A stretch of DNA of 64,000 bases, taken from positions 39,569 to 103,568 of the IMG/VR virus record IMGVR_UViG_3300028591_000013; one strand, 5' to 3'. Shown here piece after piece: positions 5,474 through 54,197 of this stretch. Source of the stretch: a virus. Its lineage: Duplodnaviria; Caudoviricetes. Within the stretch, counting starts at the first letter, position 1, and each line of letters starts with the position of its first letter. The notes below the pieces were generated by a model that ran no database searches, was not told where the DNA came from, and worked only from the letters and a program-made list of their open reading frames with translations. Position numbers and translations under genes: made by a program.

Positions 5474-6247
5474 TTATGCAGCCTTTTTAATGCCCGTAGA
5501 AGCCTTTTTCGAGGCCATAGAGACCTTCTTAGTCTTCTTCTGGGTAGTTGTACCAGCGGCCTTACGTTCGGCCTTCAGATCGGCTTTTTGAGCCTTCGAT
5601 AGAGCTGCTATATTACAGCGTTTACGGAACTTCATATATTCTTTACCTTCACGCTTTTTAATATCCATAGCAGCTTTACGAGCCTTCTTAGCGGCTTTAG
5701 CAGCAGCTTTTTTCTCAGCCTTAGTCTTTGACTTGGTCTTAGACTTATGCTGTTCTTGAACAGGCAAGATTGGTGGCTTTTTCTTCACATACGGATAGAT
5801 CTTAGATCCAGGAGTCATAATACTGCGGATAGTACCGAGAGTATCCTGGTCTGCTTCTATGTAGAAGTAGTTAGATCCCTGCATCTTCCACACAATGCCC
5901 TCATTCTTAAGAGCTTGTGTATTCATGTCCTTGTCATTAGGATTGAACGTAACGAGCACTAGATACTGATTAGGAGTATCAATCTGCTTAATCAGTTCCT
6001 CGACCTTGACCTTAGTCTGTTCTTCTGTCAATCCCATACGCTTGGCACGACGCTTCAGTGCACCAATACGGAAGTTCTTGTACTGTTCTTCACGCTCCTT
6101 TTTCAGGGCTTCCTTGTCTTTGAGCGTTTTTACTTTGCCAGTAGGAGTCTTATCCTTCTTGACGTTAACGGTTGCAAAAATATGCTTAGTATCTTGTTTT
6201 GGGGTCTGACCATTGTCAGTTGCCACCTTAAAATTCTTCTTACTCAT
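5474..6247 (-). CDS. Hypothetical Lys/Ala-rich (histone-tail-like) protein ending in KKAA
   Basis: 257-aa ORF containing KKAAAKAAKKARKAA; TATCAAAA directly before the ATG. Confidence 0.75.
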   Translation of the reverse strand: MSKKNFKVATDNGQTPKQDTKHIFATVNVKKDKTPTGKVKTLKDKEALKKEREEQYKNFRIGALKRRAKRMGLTEEQTKVKVEELIKQIDTPNQYLVLVTFNPNDKDMNTQALKNEGIVWKMQGSNYFYIEADQDTLGTIRSIMTPGSKIYPYVKKKPPILPVQEQHKSKTKSKTKAEKKAAAKAAKKARKAAMDIKKREGKEYMKFRKRCNIAALSKAQKADLKAERKAAGTTTQKKTKKVSMASKKASTGIKKAA

Positions 6248-12832: not shown

Positions 12833-13219
12833 TCATGAATCATTAAAGAACATTTGCCAAGTTGGTTGTCCACGAGCAGATGTGTGGACTTTACTCAAGA
12901 CATTGTTGCTCAGATTGACATAATCATCCTTACTCACAGGCTTCGGGGATTTCTCCCGCAGGGTTGCTGAAAGAGCAACGTCTGTCACTGTGGTAAATAC
13001 GCACGGCGTACCTTCCAGCACCTGTGTGGGCATAGTGTCAATCATAACAACTTTGTCTTGTTTCTTTTCGCTGCTCATTGTATTAGACACGATAGTGCCT
13101 GCAACAAATGCTCCTGTAAAAGAGATGAACAGCTTCCAGAACAGCGCCTCATCGCGGTTATAGCGAGCTATACCGATACATGTAGCCAGTCCTGCTAAGA
13201 ACCAAAATAAAGTCATCAT
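12833..13219 (-). CDS. Small membrane protein immediately downstream of the sigma factor
   Basis: Two N-terminal hydrophobic helices; start overlaps the sigma stop codon. Confidence 0.65.
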   Translation of the reverse strand: MMTLFWFLAGLATCIGIARYNRDEALFWKLFISFTGAFVAGTIVSNTMSSEKKQDKVVMIDTMPTQVLEGTPCVFTTVTDVALSATLREKSPKPVSKDDYVNLSNNVLSKVHTSARGQPTWQMFFNDS

Positions 13220-13782
13220 AATTTTAATTTTTTTAATTGTTTACGTCTCCGAGAGAGATGTGATTTTATCGTACCCTCTGGGATTTTGAGAATATTACTA
13301 ATCTCACTTACTGTTAAGTTGTCTATGTAATGCAGTTCGAAGACTTTACGGACGTCTTCTGGGAACCGATTAAACTCTTCGAGTATTTGATTATAGGTAA
13401 TCTCGTCGACGGTGGATTCCCCATAATCTACTTCCTGAGCGATATCAAAGACACAAGGTCCTGAACTCTCAGGCACACACACGGTTGGTTTAAGTTTACG
13501 CAGATAATCAACAGCAGTACGGTTAGTCAGCACACGTAGCCATCCTCCAAATGAGGAATAGTCTACGAATTTAGAGAGTTTTTTGTAAACCTTATCCCAG
13601 ACAATATTGTTAATCTCTCTGGCCTCATCGTAATCTTTGAGGTATTTGTACAAAATGTTCGTTGTGAACTTCTCATACTTATGATAAAGTTTATCAAACG
13701 CAGGCATGTAGCCTGCTTGAGCACTTTTGATAAGAGCTATTTCTTCTTCAGTAATCTTCGGATTCTTAGCCATATCAAACAA
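13216..13782 (-). CDS. ECF-type sigma-70 family RNA polymerase sigma factor
   Basis: Region 2 AFDKLYHKY...SFGGWLRVLTNRTAVDYLRK; region 4 RKVFELHYIDNLTVSEISNILKIPEGTIKSHLSRRRKQL. Confidence 0.9.
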   Translation of the reverse strand: MFDMAKNPKITEEEIALIKSAQAGYMPAFDKLYHKYEKFTTNILYKYLKDYDEAREINNIVWDKVYKKLSKFVDYSSFGGWLRVLTNRTAVDYLRKLKPTVCVPESSGPCVFDIAQEVDYGESTVDEITYNQILEEFNRFPEDVRKVFELHYIDNLTVSEISNILKIPEGTIKSHLSRRRKQLKKLKL

Positions 13783-13831
13783 ATTTAACCGGTTATTAAG
13801 GTGTCACTCCTGTAACAGACGGTGCTGTATT

Positions 13832-13906
13832 GCGCCAATACCAGATTCGAACTGATATATACATACCCTAGGATACGTATGTTTTGCTCTATTAAACTAA
13901 TCGACT
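13832..13906 (-). tRNA. tRNA-like element or pseudo-tRNA, anticodon undetermined
   Basis: T arm ATCAG-TTCGAAT-CTGGT, D stem GTTT/AAAC, weak acceptor stem, irregular anticodon arm ACATAC-GTATCCTAGG-GTATGT. Confidence 0.5.
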
Positions 13907-14034
13907 CGGTGATTACTATTTCACCTATTGCGCAATTTGAGTAGCGGGTAAGGTACACACCATTAAATCACACTCTTTCAGTGATGCTACTCATTGTGGG
14001 CTGTTGCTATCAAAAGCTACCTAGAAGGACAGCC

Positions 14035-14511
14035 CTAGAATGGAAGATCCTCATTTACAACAAGAATATTCTCATTCCGTAAATTTTCACAAAGATTCAT
14101 ATGTATCCTAGTTGCAATATATTTGTTTACACGGCCTTTATCAACCAGTCCATATAACATACTTGTTGCAATTCTCAATCGCACATCAAGTGTTTGATAG
14201 GATTGTATTCCTATCTCTAATGTTATTTTCCTGTTGACCCATTTTAGCCAGTATGCTAATTTTGGTTCAGACCATATTGCTTCTATTATATCATAAGAAT
14301 CCTCGTCATCATTAAATAGAGTTACCATTCTAGTGGTATTAGCTACGCCAACTGAACCTTGATTGTATGCGATGCGCAGCTGGTCATAGATATCACTTGG
14401 TTTCTCTACTTCGGGCAATAGTCCCATTTCGTAATAGGGACTCAAATAGTTGGTAAATACGCTTATCATATCTTTATATAAGATTTTCAAAGCTGTTGAT
14501 AAGGAAGTCAC
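14035..14511 (-). CDS. Hypothetical protein ending in EDLPF (TAG stop)
   Basis: 158-aa ORF; the SSB-like acidic DLPF tail supports TAG being a true stop here. Confidence 0.7.
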   Translation of the reverse strand: MTSLSTALKILYKDMISVFTNYLSPYYEMGLLPEVEKPSDIYDQLRIAYNQGSVGVANTTRMVTLFNDDEDSYDIIEAIWSEPKLAYWLKWVNRKITLEIGIQSYQTLDVRLRIATSMLYGLVDKGRVNKYIATRIHMNLCENLRNENILVVNEDLPF

Positions 14512-15070: not shown

Positions 15071-15144
15071 TGGACCATGCAGGGCTTGAACCTGCGACCT
15101 CCAGATTATGAGTCTGTTGCTCTAACCAACTGAGCTAAAAGTCC
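15071..15144 (-). tRNA. tRNA with CAU anticodon (Met or lysidine-modified Ile2)
   Basis: GGACTTT...AGCTCAGTTGGTTAGAGC...CAGA-CTCATAA-TCTG...GCAGG-TTCAAGC-CCTGC-ATGGTCC-A. Confidence 0.9.
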
Positions 15145-15145
15145 A

Positions 15146-15440
15146 GATGCAGGCACTTAGGTAGCCTGCTCACCGACTTCACGCTGCCTCCTTGAGGCCC
15201 GTGTAGTCAACGATGTTCATATCGCCGTTTAATTTTATGTCAAAGCGCTTAATGTCTTTACTTCCTTCGCCCGTCAAAATCCTGTCGAGCCCGGAATGCC
15301 CACATGAGGCCTACGAGTGGGCTGCGTAGATAGTCACCCCTTATTCGCTCTATGTGACAGATAGAACTCGGGACTTGCCGTGGACCCGGAGGGATTCGAA
15401 CCCTCGTCCGAACGAAATACCTCAGACACGCTAAGATTTC
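15146..15440 (-). ncRNA. ssrA: Circularly permuted two-piece tmRNA; tag peptide (A)GDMNIVDYTGLKEAA
   Basis: Acceptor piece (..GGAC-GAGGG-TTCGAAT-CCCTC-CGGGTCC-A, 3' end at 15381) lies upstream of the coding piece (GGGCTCG-ACAGGATTTTGAC, 5' end at 15292). The 7-bp acceptor stem has G3:U70 and A73. Tag ORF at 15226-15179. Outer boundaries are approximate. Confidence 0.85.
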
Positions 15441-15653
15441 TTTAGTTGCAGCTTGTCAAATTGAGTATATGGTTAATACTACTCTGCAACCCAGCTGAAT
15501 CTCCCAATGATCAGTTGGAAAATCCAATTTAAGGCTATTTACAGGCTCTTTGACGCGTTTTCTAGCCTCTTGTGGGTAGCGAACCCACTCAAGGATATAC
15601 GACGCCTCAAATCGCTTATAACGTCACCTTAAATGTTCTACATTGACCATGCT

Positions 15654-28151: not shown

Positions 28152-28335
28152 ATAATTCTAGTAACCCGTTATCTGCTCCTATTGGTTCAAGGATAAACTG
28201 CCAATCTTTATGATCATTATTCCTCTCTATATCGTATCTGCGTATTACTTCTTGCTTTACGTCTTCTGTATAATGATCGTTTTCTGCAGATATTATACTT
28301 GCGAGTAAGAATGATCTTAGTTCTTCTCCTTCCAT
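28141..28335 (-). CDS. Small hypothetical protein
   Basis: 64-aa ORF coupled to its neighbours. Confidence 0.6.
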   Translation of the reverse strand: MEGEELRSFLLASIISAENDHYTEDVKQEVIRRYDIERNNDHKDWQFILEPIGADNGLLELFED

Positions 28336-28766
28336 GTCTTATTGTTTAATGATTCATATTCTTTTTCTGCATCAAAACAGGGACACATCTTCTTCCATTT
28401 TCTACTATCCTTTCCCCAGATATCCCTGTGCCCCATTATATGGGCACTAGGGAATTGTTGTATTAGATAGGATAGTATGTTAAAGAGTGAGTCTTTTTGT
28501 GCTTGTGTGCGGTTATCTATAGCTCTTCCTTTGTTATCAACCCCTCCAACATAGGCGATGTTGATGCTTGTGCTGTTGTATCCTTGTACTCCATTGCTTA
28601 CTTTGGCTATATCTAATAGGTTTTCTATCTTCCCATCAGGAAATACAACGTAATGGTATCCTGGGTTCTTCCATCCTTTACTCTTGAACTCATTCAGTAG
28701 ATCCTGTTTCGTCTACTTCTGGTTCCCCGCTGTGCAATGGACGAATATCCTCTTTATCTGTCTCAT
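28317..28766 (-). CDS. Endolysin: N-acetylmuramoyl-L-alanine amidase (T7-lysozyme-like) with TAG at codon 18
   Basis: MRQIKRIFVHCTAGNQK*TKQ...PGYHYVV...NSTSINIAYVGG...IMGHRD...KMCPCFD; Zn ligands H, H and C are present. Missed by the ORF track. Confidence 0.9.
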
Positions 28767-29272: not shown

Positions 29273-29785
29273 TTATAAGCTCTAATCATTATATCTTGGG
29301 CTTTTAAGTAAGCCTCGTTTAGCGAGAAGCGTTTCAGCGTGCTTGACGTATTTCGTACATTCTGTTTCTTGGGGGTCTCCATTTTCGTTGAACGTTATGT
29401 GAGTATAAATTTGTTCTTTTTGCCAATTTTTTAACACATTTAGAGCTGTTTTTCGCTCTTGCTTTGTACTATATCTATGAATGCACTTTAACATCTATTC
29501 TGCACTCACGCTTCCACAGGCTTTTATACTGCAAATATCGTCTATAAAACTCATAGCCGCATCTTCGTCATACTTATCCCGGATTGCTTGGAATTCCTAA
29601 ACCGCTTGCATTATATACTAATTCTCTGGGTCATATTCAGGCTCTAAATCTACTATAAAAGCGCTATTTATAGGGTATCCATGTATAAAGAAATACTTAC
29701 AGTTGTCTGTAACAGGGATGCTCTATTCTTTAAGACTTAGAAAATCAGCATAATACAGTATGGCATTTAGTTCTAAATGGGTCAT
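29273..29785 (-). CDS. Hypothetical protein with five in-frame TAG
   Basis: MTHLELNAILYYADFLSLKE*SIPV...AE*MLKCIH...; ATG overlaps the upstream TGA and the frame is open until TAA. Confidence 0.75.
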
Positions 29786-30240
29786 TTCTTTATAATAGTT
29801 TTATAGATACACTTGAACACCCATTCTAAATAATAGCAAAAAGGTTCTTGCTTACACACTTCGGTACAAATTCTATCTTCTACGTAACTATACGTATCAA
29901 GAACAACGTGGCCTGCTTCGTGTACGAGCGTTGCAAGATTATCTAAAAAGGCTTCCGGTTTACTAGGTTTAGAAAGATCAAAATTAATCTTTACAAGTAC
30001 AACATTACTTCCGTCAGACTTTCTTTTGGCTCGTATAACACACCCAAGGCAGTTTGTAAAATCAGAATCTTCTAATTCTGCACCATCAAACCAGCAGTAA
30101 TCTTTAGCTATCTGTTTAGTAGTAGCAGCATTGTTAGCAACTACTAGCGGAGTAGGATATATCGATTCGTATGTATCTATATGAACTTTACTTTTTTGTT
30201 TCATGTCTCTACTTTTACTGGGGAAAGAGAAAGTAACCAA
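29782..30240 (-). CDS. Small zincin-like (HExxH) protein
   Basis: LVHEAGHV...QEPFCYY; true start is probably MKQKSK. Confidence 0.65.
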   Translation of the reverse strand: MVTFSFPSKSRDMKQKSKVHIDTYESIYPTPLVVANNAATTKQIAKDYCWFDGAELEDSDFTNCLGCVIRAKRKSDGSNVVLVKINFDLSKPSKPEAFLDNLATLVHEAGHVVLDTYSYVEDRICTEVCKQEPFCYYLEWVFKCIYKTIIKK

Positions 30241-30344
30241 AGAGAAAGGGCCAGTATATATTATATTTAGATAAAATAAGATAGAACATCATAGGGCCCT
30301 AATAACCCCCTATAGTCCCCCTTCTTCCCCATAGGTACACTCAA

Positions 30345-30427
30345 ATAACGCAAAAATCATCAAAAAAGTTGCATTTTTGCAAATTTTTTTATTAAATTGC
30401 AACCGAAGCATAATTTTTTTACGTTAT
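30345..30427. promoter_or_regulatory. Divergent pair of ECF-type late promoters, TGCAAC-N17/18-CGTTAT
   Basis: Minus strand: TGCAAC 30373-30368 and CGTTAT 30350-30345. Plus strand: TGCAAC 30398-30403 and CGTTAT 30422-30427. Located exactly at the strand switch. Confidence 0.7.
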
Positions 30428-30452
30428 GTGGGCATAAAATAAATTTGAAACA

Positions 30453-30866
30453 ATGGAAAAAACATTACGTGTAATTGAATCATTCTTTGTTATGGAGGTT
30501 GGCGATACGTTCACTTGGGATGATAATACCAAGATGTACGTAGCAGAACACTCAGAACAGTTCCATAAGTCGGACGATAATAATTCTGAAGTTCGCTCAA
30601 CCTATCAATCTAATTTTGCAATCTCTGCTGATTATGCAAAAGAGCTGATCGCAGATGGATATCTTGAAGTAGTTGGTGCAGAGAACAAGAAGGTCTTCAT
30701 GAACGTATTTGATGAGATCAGTCGTCTTACAAACAAGTATGAGGACGAGCTCAAGAATCTTAATGAAGATATGGCAAACATGCCTGAGTGTATGAAGGTA
30801 GAGCGCACTACAGTGCTCAACAATATGCTCTCACTCCTTGATCATCTTGCAGGACTTAAAAAGTGA
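30453..30866 (+). CDS. Hypothetical protein
   Basis: 137-aa ORF, first gene of the rightward late operon. Confidence 0.75.
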   Translation: MEKTLRVIESFFVMEVGDTFTWDDNTKMYVAEHSEQFHKSDDNNSEVRSTYQSNFAISADYAKELIADGYLEVVGAENKKVFMNVFDEISRLTNKYEDELKNLNEDMANMPECMKVERTTVLNNMLSLLDHLAGLKK

Positions 30867-30870
30867 TAAA

Positions 30871-31284
30871 ATGGAAGACGAGAAGTTAATTGATCAATCG
30901 GTGCTTGCCGAAGATGTAGCCAGTCAGATAAAATATCAGTTCCTGGACTTCTTCCTCGTAAAGCCCCTGGATCCGGTCAAAGTAAAGAAAGAGTTTAGTA
31001 AACCTGTCCCAACTGGTACACCCGCAAAAGATGAAAATGGAATCGAAGCACAAGACTTCGATCGCGTTGAGACAGAGGTTAAAGAAGTTGATTCTGATTA
31101 TCGCAGAGGTGTTGTTTTGAAACGTCCTTTGTATTATATTGATTCTGAAAAAAATGATAACGTCTATACTAACATAAATGTTGGCGATGTTGTTATATTC
31201 AGAGATACTGCTGGACTTCGCTTTGATCTACTTAAAGACAGTCGCCTTTTGAGGCAATATGATATTTTAGGCATTGAAAAGTGA
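30871..31284 (+). CDS. GroES/Cpn10-like co-chaperonin
   Basis: FLVKPL...RRGVVL...INVGDVVIF...LLRQYDILG; start at MEDEK. Confidence 0.65.
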   Translation: MEDEKLIDQSVLAEDVASQIKYQFLDFFLVKPLDPVKVKKEFSKPVPTGTPAKDENGIEAQDFDRVETEVKEVDSDYRRGVVLKRPLYYIDSEKNDNVYTNINVGDVVIFRDTAGLRFDLLKDSRLLRQYDILGIEK

Positions 31285-31496
31285 TTGATATCGAGAGAGT
31301 AATAAAAGACGTTTCCAAGAACTTAGATGTAGATCGCGATACTGTCAGTGCGGTTTGTAAACATGCATTCCAAACAGTAGTTGATACGATGAAAGATGAT
31401 GGAGATACTAGAGATATACTATTCAATCAGGCATTTAAGTTTAAACTGAAACGCAGATACAAACAAGACAAGACAAAACAATACAGTTCAAAATGA
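31281..31496 (+). CDS. HU/IHF-like DNA-binding protein
   Basis: Two helices followed by ILFNQAFKFKLKRR, resembling the IHF fold found in crAss-like late modules. Confidence 0.55.
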   Translation: MIDIERVIKDVSKNLDVDRDTVSAVCKHAFQTVVDTMKDDGDTRDILFNQAFKFKLKRRYKQDKTKQYSSK

Positions 31497-31957
31497 AGAC
31501 TTTATATTTAACAGACAGCTCAACAAACATTGTTGTAGATCCCGATACCGACTTCGTAGGCACACTTCCACAGGAGGACCGTTATGCTATTCGCTCAGTA
31601 TATTATATAGAAGAGCCGATGCACATTGTATACAATTGTGGTGAGTGCAAGGAAGAGATCGATGCTAAGAAGGGTGACATCCTTCTTCTGTTCTACTCAA
31701 ACAAGTATAACAAGTACAACATCGACACAATTAGAACAAAGCAGTGGACTGCTAATATCAAGAACCGTAGAGCTATTGAGCAGAAGGAAAAGGAAGAGTG
31801 GGCTGCTAAACAAGCAGAAAACGAGTGTAAATATTGCTATTGCGAGGCGTGCCCAGACGTGTGCGCTCCAGAACCTCCAAAGGAGACTGTTTGTGAAAAG
31901 ATTTCCAAGGCCTTGACCAAGGCTAAGAAAGCTGTTAAGAAAGTTAAGAAAGCATAA
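31493..31957 (+). CDS. Hypothetical protein
   Basis: 154-aa ORF with a Cys cluster and a basic tail. Confidence 0.7.
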   Translation: MKTLYLTDSSTNIVVDPDTDFVGTLPQEDRYAIRSVYYIEEPMHIVYNCGECKEEIDAKKGDILLLFYSNKYNKYNIDTIRTKQWTANIKNRRAIEQKEKEEWAAKQAENECKYCYCEACPDVCAPEPPKETVCEKISKALTKAKKAVKKVKKA

Positions 31958-31973
31958 TCAGATATATAGAATT

Positions 31974-32315
31974 ATGAAGAAGAATATTAAAACAAAGCCC
32001 GCTTTTATTGTAAATCTTACTAATATTGAAAACTGTGACGACATAAAGTTCGAGTTTATTAGAGCAAAGGCTACACAGGGCGTGGCAATTACAGAAGATG
32101 ATATTACCTGGCTTGTGATGCTTGGAGTTAAAATTACAGGCGACATTCTCAATGAGATTGATGAAGAGTGCGAGAAGAATATTATTCGTATTAAGGACGA
32201 TAAGTTGTTTAATAAGCTTGAGGATATTCTTAAGGAGGCTACAGGTAAAAAGAAGGAGCCTTGGTATAAGCGCTTCTGGAATTGGATTAAACATCCTTTT
32301 AAGAAAAACAAGTAA
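31974..32315 (+). CDS. Hypothetical protein
   Basis: 113-aa ORF ending in KEPWYKRFWNW. Confidence 0.7.
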   Translation: MKKNIKTKPAFIVNLTNIENCDDIKFEFIRAKATQGVAITEDDITWLVMLGVKITGDILNEIDEECEKNIIRIKDDKLFNKLEDILKEATGKKKEPWYKRFWNWIKHPFKKNK

Positions 32316-32344
32316 ACGAGTATAACCGTTATGTTATACTGGAA

Positions 32345-32532
32345 GGCGCTGCGATATGTCGGTTATCCGGCGGGCGTGTAGGAAGTTCGAATCTTCCCAG
32401 AGCCGCACAATACAGCCGATACAGGGGAGGCTGAGATTCGGATGGCCATCCGGACCCCTGTGATATAGTTAAAATGTTGATTGGCAACCTACGGTTAGAC
32501 CCAATGCGGGGGAGCGTTACCCCCGGTAGGTA
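32345..32532 (+). ncRNA. Cluster of three short tRNA-like elements (closing stem plus T-arm-like hairpin)
   Basis: GGAAG-TTCGAAT-CTTCC arm at 32381-32397; ACAGGGG...CCCCTGT; ACCTAC...CGGGG-GAGCGTTA-CCCCG-GTAGGT. Confidence 0.45.
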
Positions 32533-32533
32533 C

Positions 32534-32610
32534 TGCTTAGTGGTGTATGATTCCTAGCACGTCGGGCTCTAACCCCGGAAGATCTGGAGATGAACCGGAC
32601 TGGGCAACCA
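32534..32610 (+). tRNA. Amber suppressor tRNA(CUA), probably charged with Gln
   Basis: Acceptor TGCTTAG/CTGGGCA (U1-A72), D stem GTGT/GCAC, anticodon arm TCGGG-CTCTAAC-CCCGG (CTA at 32569-32571), T stem TCTGG/CCGGA, encoded A-CCA end. Confidence 0.85.
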
Positions 32611-32634
32611 TTATTACTAAAATTATATATAAAG

Positions 32635-33192
32635 ATGGTAATTAAATTTAAAAGACTTTCAGAAAATGCAATCGCACCTGTAAAGGCACATGCCACAGAT
32701 GCTGGATTCGATTTGACATGTACACGAATCACAACAGAGATTAACGAATGTGGACAACTTGTACTTGTATATCATACTGATATTGCAGTAGAGATTCCTC
32801 AAGGTTATTTTGGAGCTCTTGTTCCTCGTTCATCTATCTCAAAGAAATCTCTTACTCTTACTAATTGTATTGGTGTAATTGATTCTGATTATCGTGGCGA
32901 AGTAATGGCCAAGATGCGAGCTACAACAGATGTTGTACCTGCTATATATAAAGAAGGTGAAAGATTTTGTCAACTCCTTATACTCCCAGTACCTGATGTA
33001 CAGTTTGAGGAGAGTGATACACTCAGTGAGACTGACCGTGGAGAAGGCGGTTATGGGTCTACTGACAATATAAACGAAAGCGCACCTACGGCTACTCAGA
33101 GTCTTCCGGAAACAGAAGTCGAGACTACAAACTCTGAGCCCGCAAATGAGGCAGCGGTGGAATCGATAAACGATTCTGAAGAAGCACAATAA
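32635..33192 (+). CDS. dut: dUTPase (trimeric)
   Basis: AGFDL, PRSS, GVIDSDYRGE and RGEGGYGST motifs. Confidence 0.95.
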   Translation: MVIKFKRLSENAIAPVKAHATDAGFDLTCTRITTEINECGQLVLVYHTDIAVEIPQGYFGALVPRSSISKKSLTLTNCIGVIDSDYRGEVMAKMRATTDVVPAIYKEGERFCQLLILPVPDVQFEESDTLSETDRGEGGYGSTDNINESAPTATQSLPETEVETTNSEPANEAAVESINDSEEAQ

Positions 33193-33408
33193 TTACGTAA
33201 TAAAAGCTTCATGGGGTGGCGTACATCAGATGGCAAAACCTCACAAACTGCAGTTGTTAAAAAACAATTGTATTCATTGTTAGATTAAAATTAGTTATGC
33301 TGATAGGGGACCATTCAAGGCCCCCTATTGGCGTATATATCAACAACAGTTCCCGCGCTGTATAATGCGGATATCAACAACAACTATTAATTATCAACAA
33401 TTTAAACT

Positions 33409-34302
33409 ATGGAAAGTTCTAAAATTATGATGTTCCCTGAGATGGGAAGTACTAATGGCATTGATCCGAACCTGCTGTTAGCTCTTAACAACAATGGTGG
33501 TTTCGGTGGTAATAACTGGATATGGATCCTCTTCCTCTGGATGATCTGGGGTTGGGGTGGCAATGGTAACTGGGGTGGAAACGGTAACAACGGATTCCTC
33601 TCTAATCAGATTGCTAACGACTCTGGTCGTGAGCTCCTGATGAACGCTATCCAGGGTAATGGTAACGCTATTCGTGACCTTGCTAATCTTCTTAATACAG
33701 AAATAAGCACTGTTCAGAATGGCATCTTTACTCTTAACAATGCTATTACTTCTGTTGGTACTCAGGTGGGCATGAGCGGATTGCAAATTTAGAACGCTAT
33801 CCAGAGTGGTAATGCATCTATCGCAAGCCAGATCTGTCAGTGCTGCTGCGAGAATCGTTTGGCTATTGCCAATCAGACCAACGCACTGCAGTCTCAGATG
33901 GCCGCAAATCAAGCAGCCGATCAGCTTGCAGTATGTCAGCAAACAAATTCGCTGAGCACACAGGCTGAGCGTAATACTCGCGACATCGTAGATGCAATAC
34001 AGAGTCAGAGTGTAATGATCAACGATAAGTTCTGTGATCTCGAAAAGAGAGAACTGCAGGATAAGATTAACTCTCTGACAGCTGACAATGCTCTGTTGCG
34101 TTCTAATATAAACAATGACCGCCAGACTGCATTTATTAACGAGAAATTTAATAATGTTGCTACTGAGCTTGCAGCCATTAAGGCTTCACAGCCCAATACA
34201 GTACCTGTACAGTGGCCTCAACTGACCGCAGTTAACACAACCCCATACATGGGAAGTTTCTACGGTGGTTGGAACGGTTGGAGCAACAATGTTTCATTTT
34301 AA
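33409..34302 (+). CDS. Bacteroidota-phage protein with Gly/Trp-rich N-terminus, CCC motif and coiled coil; one TAG
   Basis: Track ORFs 33409-33792 and 33859-34302 are in frame and joined through TAG at 33790. Confidence 0.8.
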
Positions 34303-52688: not shown

Positions 52689-54197
52689 ATGAATAATACT
52701 TTACTTAACAATCTCCAGCTGTATCGCGGACGTCGTTTCAGCGATCTGGTGGACGAGAACATGATTTCTAATGCACTTCTGACCAAGCCTCACGAGGTAT
52801 CTGGTCTTCTTTCACTGGTATTCGGTACTAAGGATGATGGTATTTCAACTACCATCGACCTGATCACTGGTGGACTCGGAAAGACAATGGTAATCGAGAA
52901 TCGTGAGTTTGAGTGGGCTGTGCAGGTAGATAGCGATCACGCTGTAAATATTCGCTGGGCTAAGTGGAATGGCCAGGAAATTACTACTGCCAACTACAAC
53001 CAGCTTACTCCTGGTGCCGGTAATACTCCAATCTATCTCGCTCTTGAAGAGCGTTGGTTTGGACCTGGCGCTATTCTGAGCTTCGATGATTTCCACTTCC
53101 AGGTTCGTACCACTGGTGTTCCTTATCAGGATGGTAGCGCTTGGGTATACGAGTGTTATGTAATTGATGGTTCTCAGGCTGCTTATATTCCTGGTGAGCT
53201 CATGCTTCCTGGTCGTCAGGTAAGCCGTATGGGTTCTGCTTACGAGGAGTACAGCGATGAGGCAGATATCATCAACTATCAGACTCCGTTTAAGATGCGT
53301 AACCACCTCCAGACCCTTCGTCTGAGCTATGATATCACCGGCGACGCTTATAGCACCGTTCTTGCTATCGCTCTGAAGGATCCCGAGACTGGCAAGTCAT
53401 CTTATCTGTGGGCTGATTATCAGTACTGGAAGGCTCTTCGTGAGTGGAAGAAGCGTGAGGAAACCGCTCTGCTCTTCTCTAAGAGTAACCGTCTGGGTGA
53501 TGGTACCTATATTAACAAGGGTACTAATGGTCGTCCTGTTCCCACAATGGCCGGTCTGCTCGAGCAGATTAGCCCTGCTAACATCCGTTATTACACCAAG
53601 CTTACTGCTGAGCTGTTTGAGGATTATCTGTTTGATCTCTGCTATAATATCCTTGGTACCAACGAGCGTCGTTTCGTTGCTCTGACTGGTGAGATGGGTA
53701 TTCGCGAGTTCGATCGTATCCTGAAGGAGAAGGTCGCTAGCTTTAATATGTGTGAGAACATCTTCGTTGACGGTAGTGGTCAGAACCTGACTCTTGGTGG
53801 CCAGTTTACTACTTATAAAATGACTAATGGCATCACGCTGTCTGTGAAGCGTTGTCCCATGTTCGACAATATGGAGCTCTTCCGTCAGCTTCATCCGCTG
53901 ACTGGTAAACCCCTGATGTCTTATACTTTCCTCTTCGTTGATATTAGCAACGCTGATGGTCAGTCTAACATCGTTAAGGTTTGTCGTAAGGGTCGTGAGT
54001 TCGTTCAGTGGTATACTGGTGGTTCTGTAGCCCCCAACGGTTACGCTAACAGCATCAACACACTGCGTTCTAATAGCCGTGATGGTTACCAGGTACACTT
54101 CCTTGGTGAAGTTGGTATTATGGTTCGTAACCCGCTGTCTTGTGGTATTCTGTACTGCGACGCAGAGGATACTGAGATCTCTAACAGCGGTATTTAA
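52689..54197 (+). CDS. Major capsid protein
   Basis: 502 aa with strong codon bias, after portal and scaffold, followed by a terminator-like hairpin; no TAG. Confidence 0.85.
   Translation: MNNTLLNNLQLYRGRRFSDLVDENMISNALLTKPHEVSGLLSLVFGTKDDGISTTIDLITGGLGKTMVIENREFEWAVQVDSDHAVNIRWAKWNGQEITTANYNQLTPGAGNTPIYLALEERWFGPGAILSFDDFHFQVRTTGVPYQDGSAWVYECYVIDGSQAAYIPGELMLPGRQVSRMGSAYEEYSDEADIINYQTPFKMRNHLQTLRLSYDITGDAYSTVLAIALKDPETGKSSYLWADYQYWKALREWKKREETALLFSKSNRLGDGTYINKGTNGRPVPTMAGLLEQISPANIRYYTKLTAELFEDYLFDLCYNILGTNERRFVALTGEMGIREFDRILKEKVASFNMCENIFVDGSGQNLTLGGQFTTYKMTNGITLSVKRCPMFDNMELFRQLHPLTGKPLMSYTFLFVDISNADGQSNIVKVCRKGREFVQWYTGGSVAPNGYANSINTLRSNSRDGYQVHFLGEVGIMVRNPLSCGILYCDAEDTEISNSGI

Follow-up and report, generated by a model that had tools for sequence, protein, structure and literature searches.

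Does one signal turn on both the late genes of a phage that uses TAG as a sense codon and the suppressor tRNA that would decode them? A divergent intergenic region in a crAss-like phage from the sheep gut (IMG/VR record IMGVR_UViG_3300028591_000013) raises this question. We analyzed it in a window of 64,000 nucleotides (nt) (i.e., bases 39569 to 103568, the right 64 kb of the 103,568-bp record; positions are those of the window unless marked as genome positions). The record carries direct terminal repeats of 127 bp. The phage is Oafivirinae-like (family Suoliviridae), and its nearest named relatives are the crAss-like phages cr130_1, cr124_1, Bohxovirus, and Dulem virus 42 (Suoliviridae/Oafivirinae). 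With TAG read as sense, the genome falls into two blocks (i.e., a recoded rightward block and a leftward block almost free of TAG). The rightward block runs from 30453 through the end of the record and on to genome position 32913, encodes structural proteins and giant polymerase-like proteins, and contains 198 in-frame TAG codons in approximately 21,500 codons. A short leftward unit at the divergence point (30204 down to approximately 27664) is likewise recoded.

Two promoter-like sites of the extracytoplasmic function (ECF) type stand back to back at the divergence point, and five TAG-free genes separate the rightward site from an amber suppressor tRNA gene 2.1 kb downstream. The best explanation, to which we assign a probability of approximately 0.6, is that these sites are two independent late ECF-type promoters read by a sigma factor of the phage and that the suppressor is co-transcribed from the rightward one.

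Divergent ECF-type sites in the late intergenic region

The leftward site (30345 to 30373, minus strand) consists of TGCAAC (30373 to 30368), a 17-nt spacer, and CGTTAT (30350 to 30345), and it faces the lysis-side unit. The rightward site (30398 to 30427, plus strand) consists of TGCAAC (30398 to 30403), an 18-nt spacer, and CGTTAT (30422 to 30427), and it ends 25 nt ahead of the ATG at 30453. The strict pattern TGCAAC-N16-19-CGTTA has two matches in the window (0.10 expected), both inside the 250-nt divergent intergenic region (30204 to 30453) and one on each strand. By themselves, the hexamers are not enriched (TGCAAC, 33 versus 31.5 expected) or only slightly so (CGTTAT, 37 versus 29 expected). 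We also scanned the whole genome with a weight matrix derived from 23 non-redundant orthologous sites. The rightward and leftward sites were the sole clear outliers (28.8 and 21.7 bits, respectively); when the entire 103.5-kb genome was shuffled 30 times, no score exceeded 19.2 bits.

The comparison set comprised 26 loci, retrieved with the first rightward protein (DUF7399; 46 to 99% identity), together with 17 related genomes. All 26 loci carry TTTGCAACC-N16/17-ACGTTATG 25 to 40 nt ahead of the DUF7399 gene, and nearly all have an oppositely directed TGCAACT-N16/17-ACGTTA. In the 17 genomes, the strict pattern gave 47 matches, compared with 4 for a reversed control; the motif pair is present in each of these genomes, one of which (G009) has one strict match only. 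The consensus of the clade is a -35 element TTGCAAC(C/T), a spacer of 16 to 18 nt, and a -10 element (A)CGTTA(T).

An earlier reading of the window (here called the sequence-only reading) had described the back-to-back sites and compared them with ECF promoters. The counts, the shuffles, and the conservation among relatives bear out this description. Both sites have AAC in the -35 element, CGT in the -10 element, the appropriate spacing, and a gene start downstream, and no sigma-70-type match lies inside either of them. A Bacteroidota-type -7 element (TAAATTTG; approximately 30439 to 30446, before the ATG) was set aside, since it is missing from the sequences of the relatives.

Two further features were observed around such sites. 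At 30300 to 30335, C-runs on the plus strand read GGGG...GGGGG-ACTATA-GGGGG on the leftward transcript and are conserved in cr130_1 and Bohxovirus. A similar pair of G-runs follows a site at genome position 220, where TGCAAC-N18-CGTTA (genome positions 220 to 248) lies within coding sequence, 93 nt beyond the terminal repeat that closes the window. The flanks of this site score poorly on the matrix. Across ten genomes (this phage and nine relatives), its CGTTA and GCAAC are invariant and the leading T is kept in eight, and the conservation extends to wobble positions and to places where the amino acid changes. On these alignments, it may represent a third, internal ECF-type promoter ahead of the tail and polymerase module.

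The amber suppressor and the distribution of TAG

The suppressor tRNA(CUA) that the sequence-only reading had placed downstream of the rightward site occupies 32534 to 32610 (plus strand). Manual inspection identified the gene, and it was confirmed against relatives, which carry a canonical or similarly odd tRNA(CUA) at the same place, approximately 2 kb past the promoter. The gene has four stems and an encoded CCA; its cloverleaf includes a 7-nt anticodon loop, CU-CUA-AC (U33-CUA-A37), and U1-A72. The elbow is non-canonical, with a D loop (ATGATTCCTA) that lacks GG and a T loop (AGATGAA) that lacks TTC. ARAGORN (default, intron, and relaxed settings) and Rfam (E values up to 10) returned no tRNA(CUA) at 32340 to 32610, and standard tools detected none anywhere in the genome. 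An RNAalifold analysis of 12 aligned tRNA(CUA) sequences revealed double compensatory changes in 17 of the 20 predicted pairs. A covariance model derived from this alignment scored 70.2 bits here, and its next match was the phage tRNA-Gln(UUG) (50.8 bits), which fits a suppressor that would be charged with Gln and read TAG as this amino acid. A scan of loops found no other CUA loop in a tRNA context in the genome. Minimum free energy folding of 32325 to 32625 was no better than that of shuffled sequences (z = 0.82) and was uninformative. Suppressor tRNAs that escape detection have been discussed previously (PMC7886860), and the tRNA at 32534 to 32610 is an example of this kind.

A conserved cluster of structured RNA (32340 to 32533, plus strand) precedes the suppressor, with compensatory differences, assessed by eye, relative to four related loci (L008, L009, L013, and L016). 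It consists of a tRNA-like element whose T arm is canonical, a pseudoknot-like element, a 17-nt block (GTTAAAATGTTGATTGG; 32462 to 32478) that is conserved in four lineages, and an acceptor and T-arm element ending 2 nt short of the tRNA(CUA). The pseudoknot-like element (within 32412 to 32478) interleaves CAGCC/GGCTG with ACAGGGG/CCCCTGT, shows compensatory differences in the same four loci, and matched no Rfam family. In several relatives (L007, approximately 5990 to 6010; L008, approximately 6030 to 6060; L002, approximately 5763 to 5795), an insertion splits the tRNA(CUA) itself in the anticodon loop, directly behind CTCT. These insertions open with a conserved sequence and contain an open reading frame (ORF) of approximately 250 to 300 amino acids (aa), so that each looks like an intron with a homing endonuclease.

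The rightward unit is headed by five TAG-free genes (30453 to 32315, plus strand), which encode DUF7399, a GroES-like protein, and proteins of 71, 154, and 113 aa. The first gene past the suppressor, encoding a dUTPase (32635 to 33192, plus strand), is also TAG-free. As the sequence-only reading had stated, the genes ahead of the suppressor contain no in-frame TAG, and the first one in the unit appears at 33790 to 33792 (plus strand), in the gene at 33409 to 34302. Orthologous leader genes are TAG-free in most of 18 related loci. The late block averages 9.2 TAG per 1,000 codons, while the approximately 800 codons of the first six rightward genes hold none. Such a leader is unlikely by chance (Poisson, approximately 1e-3; permutation of gene order, approximately 1e-2), these values being approximate because one 113-aa gene was missed by the gene caller.

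On the leftward side, the first gene (29782 to 30204, minus strand; phrog_1365) is TAG-free here and in all of the relatives examined. The second (29273 to 29785, minus strand; 170 aa) contains five in-frame TAG codons and is conserved (tblastn E values of 1e-43 or better), and its orthologues have one to eight in-frame stops, except for that of L025, which has none. An amidase-type endolysin (28317 to 28766, minus strand; phrog_822, 3.3e-43) has a TAG at codon 18.

Between the dUTPase gene and the first recoded gene, the non-coding stretch at 33193 to 33340 is conserved at the DNA level far above the flanking genes. It contains a hairpin with a covarying stem (GGGGT/ACCTC, GGGGC/GCCTC, and GACTCT/AGAGTT) around a conserved loop, and a second hairpin (ATAGGGG...CCCCTAT) followed by TGGCGTATATA. 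The stretch might mark the boundary of a unit or encode a small RNA.

The phage sigma factor and the probable reading of the sites

The phage encodes an ECF-type sigma factor in the TAG-free, standard-code block (13216 to 13782, minus strand; 188-aa ORF with a likely ATG at 13773), in agreement with the standard-code sigma gene of the sequence-only reading. Pfam places Sigma70_r2 at residues 32 to 98 and Sigma70_r4_2 at residues 132 to 183 of the 188 aa, so that only the sigma-2 and sigma-4 domains are present, as expected for an ECF (group 4) sigma of approximately 180 to 200 aa. The protein scores 74.9 bits against TIGR02937 (sigma70-ECF; cutoff, 42.9) and reaches no equivalog cutoff. Its closest relatives of solved structure are SigW (5wuq, the best match), a sigma-H factor (6in7), and RpoE. 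Genes of this type are already labeled "sigma-W factor" in GenBank records of crAss genomes, and thus the sigma gene itself is not new. Within the literature library that we searched, no paper dealt with a sigma factor of crAss-like phages or with the promoters of such a sigma.

A sigma orthologue is encoded in all 17 of the motif-bearing genomes. Other Suoliviridae subfamilies have a sigma that is only 26 to 29% identical, together with different AAC...CGT sites near the same gene neighborhood. These sites read TTAACA-N15/16-CGTTT in cr4_1, cr52_1, and cr125_1 and CAAC-N16-CGTTAT in cr1_1 and cr10_1. In the former three phages (L079, L081, and L077, respectively), GTTAACAAATGTTAAAA precedes TTAACA-N15/16-CGTTT upstream of the DUF7399 genes. 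In crAss001 (Steigviridae), the sigma, the DUF7399 gene, and the motif were all not found. On a few genomes read by eye, the motif type thus appears to shift with the sigma clade, which is the pattern expected if promoter and sigma coevolve.

We infer that this sigma reads the sites, that the suppressor is co-transcribed, and that the events follow in a temporal order, as follows. Host core RNA polymerase carrying the phage ECF sigma, supplied from the TAG-free leftward early/middle block, would most likely read both divergent sites. The leftward promoter would drive the short recoded unit, including the amidase. The rightward promoter would drive the five TAG-free genes, the tRNA-like RNAs, the tRNA(CUA), and the dUTPase and then the recoded structural genes. 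With no promoter of its own at 32304 to 32332, the suppressor would be made within the sigma-dependent rightward transcript and released by tRNA processing, so that the transcriptional switch and the UAG-to-Gln switch would be one event. The cascade as a whole is plausible.

The suppressor might instead be expressed from an unrecognized promoter of its own, in or just before the RNA cluster (e.g., at 32462 to 32478), and could then be made early. The conserved 17-nt block, which stands approximately 55 to 140 nt upstream of the tRNA in its four lineages, would be a candidate for such a promoter, and phi14:2-like phages often have a promoter motif upstream of tRNA genes (10.1101/2020.03.07.982082). 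However, by eye the block resembles neither the ECF motif nor the TTTG/TAnnTTTG type, and it is missing from relatives with a canonical tRNA(CUA) (e.g., L013). A conserved ECF site ahead of the tRNA is present in none of the relatives, and the conserved TAG-free state of the genes upstream fits co-transcription with the suppressor. We therefore regard a separate promoter as unlikely, though it is the strongest of the alternatives.

Somewhat less likely still is that the sites are promoters read by a host ECF sigma or another host factor and that the phage sigma has its targets elsewhere. Bacteroidota carry many ECF sigmas, and the phage sigma gene has no copy of the motif upstream of it. This account would leave the phage sigma without a target, since the genome contains no other clear ECF-like motif copies. 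The shift of motif type with sigma clade across the Suoliviridae and the absence of the motif from the sigma-less crAss001 also argue for the phage sigma as the reader.

There is only a slim chance that the inverted pair serves as the operator of a phage regulator, or in replication or packaging, rather than as a pair of promoters. The sites do lie in a non-coding gap and together make up an imperfect inverted repeat. Among the related loci, however, the two -35 elements are separated by a gap of approximately 6 to approximately 45 nt, while the spacing within each site is fixed at 16 to 18 nt, and across the 26 loci the spacers and flanks diverge and the hexamers are kept. The variable gap and the diverged spacers and flanks indicate two separate bipartite sites and not one palindromic operator. 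Each site is also directed at a gene start 25 to 140 nt away and has the AAC/CGT composition and spacing of ECF promoters.

The third ECF promoter of the sequence-only reading, proposed to drive the tRNA-like cluster and the suppressor separately, was rejected as very improbable: its string is present (32304 to 32332, plus strand; AAAAAC at 32304 to 32309, N17, and CGTTAT at 32327 to 32332) and its -10 half scores 8.2 bits, but its -35 half scores -8.6 bits, the relaxed pattern AAAC-N16-18-CGTTAT is at chance level (one match versus 0.56 expected; 41 of 100 shuffles reach that number), and the site is not conserved, no relative having a matrix match ahead of its tRNA(CUA). The CGTTAT in question is the 6-nt loop of a perfect 7-bp hairpin (GTATAAC/GTTATAC; 32320 to 32339) that starts 5 nt past a stop codon, and in L008, whose element is otherwise nearly identical, the loop is CGTCAA. 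No plus-strand terminator-like site lies between 30453 and 32534, and co-transcription from the rightward site thus does not need a third promoter. Overall, the sequence-only reading holds for the two divergent sites, the sigma, the TAG pattern, the suppressor, and the TAG in the amidase gene, not for a separate promoter before the tRNA cluster; its interpretation is in this sense partly supported in silico. The timing in its model, and the clearing of stalled ribosomes by a permuted tmRNA, are conjecture.

Several points weigh against the reading of both sites by the phage sigma and the co-transcription of the suppressor. Within the clade, sigma and motif always occur together, and the link between them rests on a few outgroup genomes. 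No matrix match lies near 13773 to 14035, i.e., upstream of the sigma gene, and ECF sigma genes are commonly, though not universally, preceded by their own target promoter. Many promoter-distant late genes are TAG-free as well (e.g., 52689 to 54197), and TAG avoidance may reflect high expression rather than gene order. The unit might already end at the strongly conserved hairpin region at 33193 to 33340, ahead of the recoded genes. If only two or three promoters served the approximately 66 kb of rightward genes, transcription would have to pass several hairpins, or further promoters would have to exist. Four sheep-gut RNA libraries contain the phage or close strains, as contigs only, which cannot show where transcripts begin or on which strand and may derive in part from DNA. 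At most, these contigs give a weak hint in favor of the promoters: those of two studies terminate at 30453 and 30455, another terminates at 30325, and none of the listed contig pieces crosses the promoter gap. Uncovered stretches in these contigs, differences in depth, and a joint from 32289 to 32641 derive from related strains or assembly and were not used as evidence.

The surroundings of the sigma gene were also inspected. A cognate anti-sigma is often, though not universally, encoded beside an ECF sigma; no recognizable anti-sigma was found for the phage sigma. A 128-aa protein (12833 to 13219, minus strand) overlaps the stop of the sigma gene (ATGA), has N-terminal hydrophobic segments, belongs to no Pfam family, and is a candidate sigma partner or anti-sigma. 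Several other Suoliviridae also have a small gene of unknown function 3' of the sigma gene. Directly upstream of the sigma gene (13790 to 13945, minus strand) is a tRNA-like element with an acceptor-like ATTGCGC/GCGCAAT, a TTCGAAT loop, and a long irregular middle. ARAGORN alone called a permuted tmRNA (15088 to 15470, minus strand; tag, GDMNIVDYTGLKEAA) that overlaps a tRNA-Met, and Rfam gave no tmRNA match at the gathering score for this interval; a tmRNA is annotated near the sigma genes in the GenBank records of cr52_1 and cr124_1. The gene directly upstream of the sigma gene terminates in TAG. TAG serves as the stop in just 2 of the 35 longer genes of the standard-code block (at 14035 and 16807) and is thus rare even where it is not sense.

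Known systems and the proposed timing of the code switch

Phage sigmas that redirect the RNA polymerase of the host to middle or late promoters include gp28 and gp33/34 of SPO1, gp55 of T4, and the ECF-like gp36 of phiEco32. As in those phages, a small sigma is encoded here among the earlier genes, and a distinct promoter consensus precedes late, structural, and lysis genes. Unlike them, the crAss-like phage also packages a giant RNA polymerase of its own, the promoter is seen in only two or three copies, and one of the controlled units carries a suppressor tRNA that changes the code. Bacillus ECF promoters of the SigW/SigM type read TGAAAC or TGCAAC, N16-17, and CGT. The sites described here share with them the AAC, the CGT, and a spacer of 16 to 18 nt and differ from them in the extended conserved flanks (TTTGCAACC and ACGTTATG), which are specific to this phage clade, and in that no autoregulatory copy was found. 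The middle and late promoters of phi14:2 resemble the -35/-10 elements of the primary sigma and are used by the E. coli sigma-70 holoenzyme, and these motifs often precede tRNA genes (10.1101/2020.03.07.982082). In contrast, the motif of the present phage is of the ECF type, and the phage encodes its own sigma. One crAss family would depart from the model set by phi14:2, whose late promoters are read by the primary sigma of the host.

A model in which stop-codon recoding times late and lysis genes has been described (10.1101/2021.08.26.457843; PMC7886860): structural and lysis genes use TAG as a sense codon, the phage has a suppressor tRNA, and the standard code is retained in early genes. The present phage resembles this model in all three respects. 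The words "sigma" and "promoter" are absent from both papers, and the locus adds to the model a concrete wiring (i.e., sigma, promoter, TAG-free leader genes, and suppressor). We offer more tentatively, at less than even odds, the further proposal that the ECF sigma triggers the code switch. In this proposal, the leader would be TAG-free in all lineages because it is translated before processing modules of the tRNA-like kind release the suppressor, after which the amidase (TAG at codon 18) and the structural genes would become decodable.

The idea of recoding as a timer for the late and lysis genes of gut phages had no named control point, and this locus offers one that can be tested at the bench. 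Its components (i.e., a 190-aa sigma, an 85-bp divergent promoter fragment, and a single suppressor gene) are conserved across a widespread crAss-like family. If the proposed wiring is correct, a single transcriptional event would time assembly and lysis through a change of genetic code.

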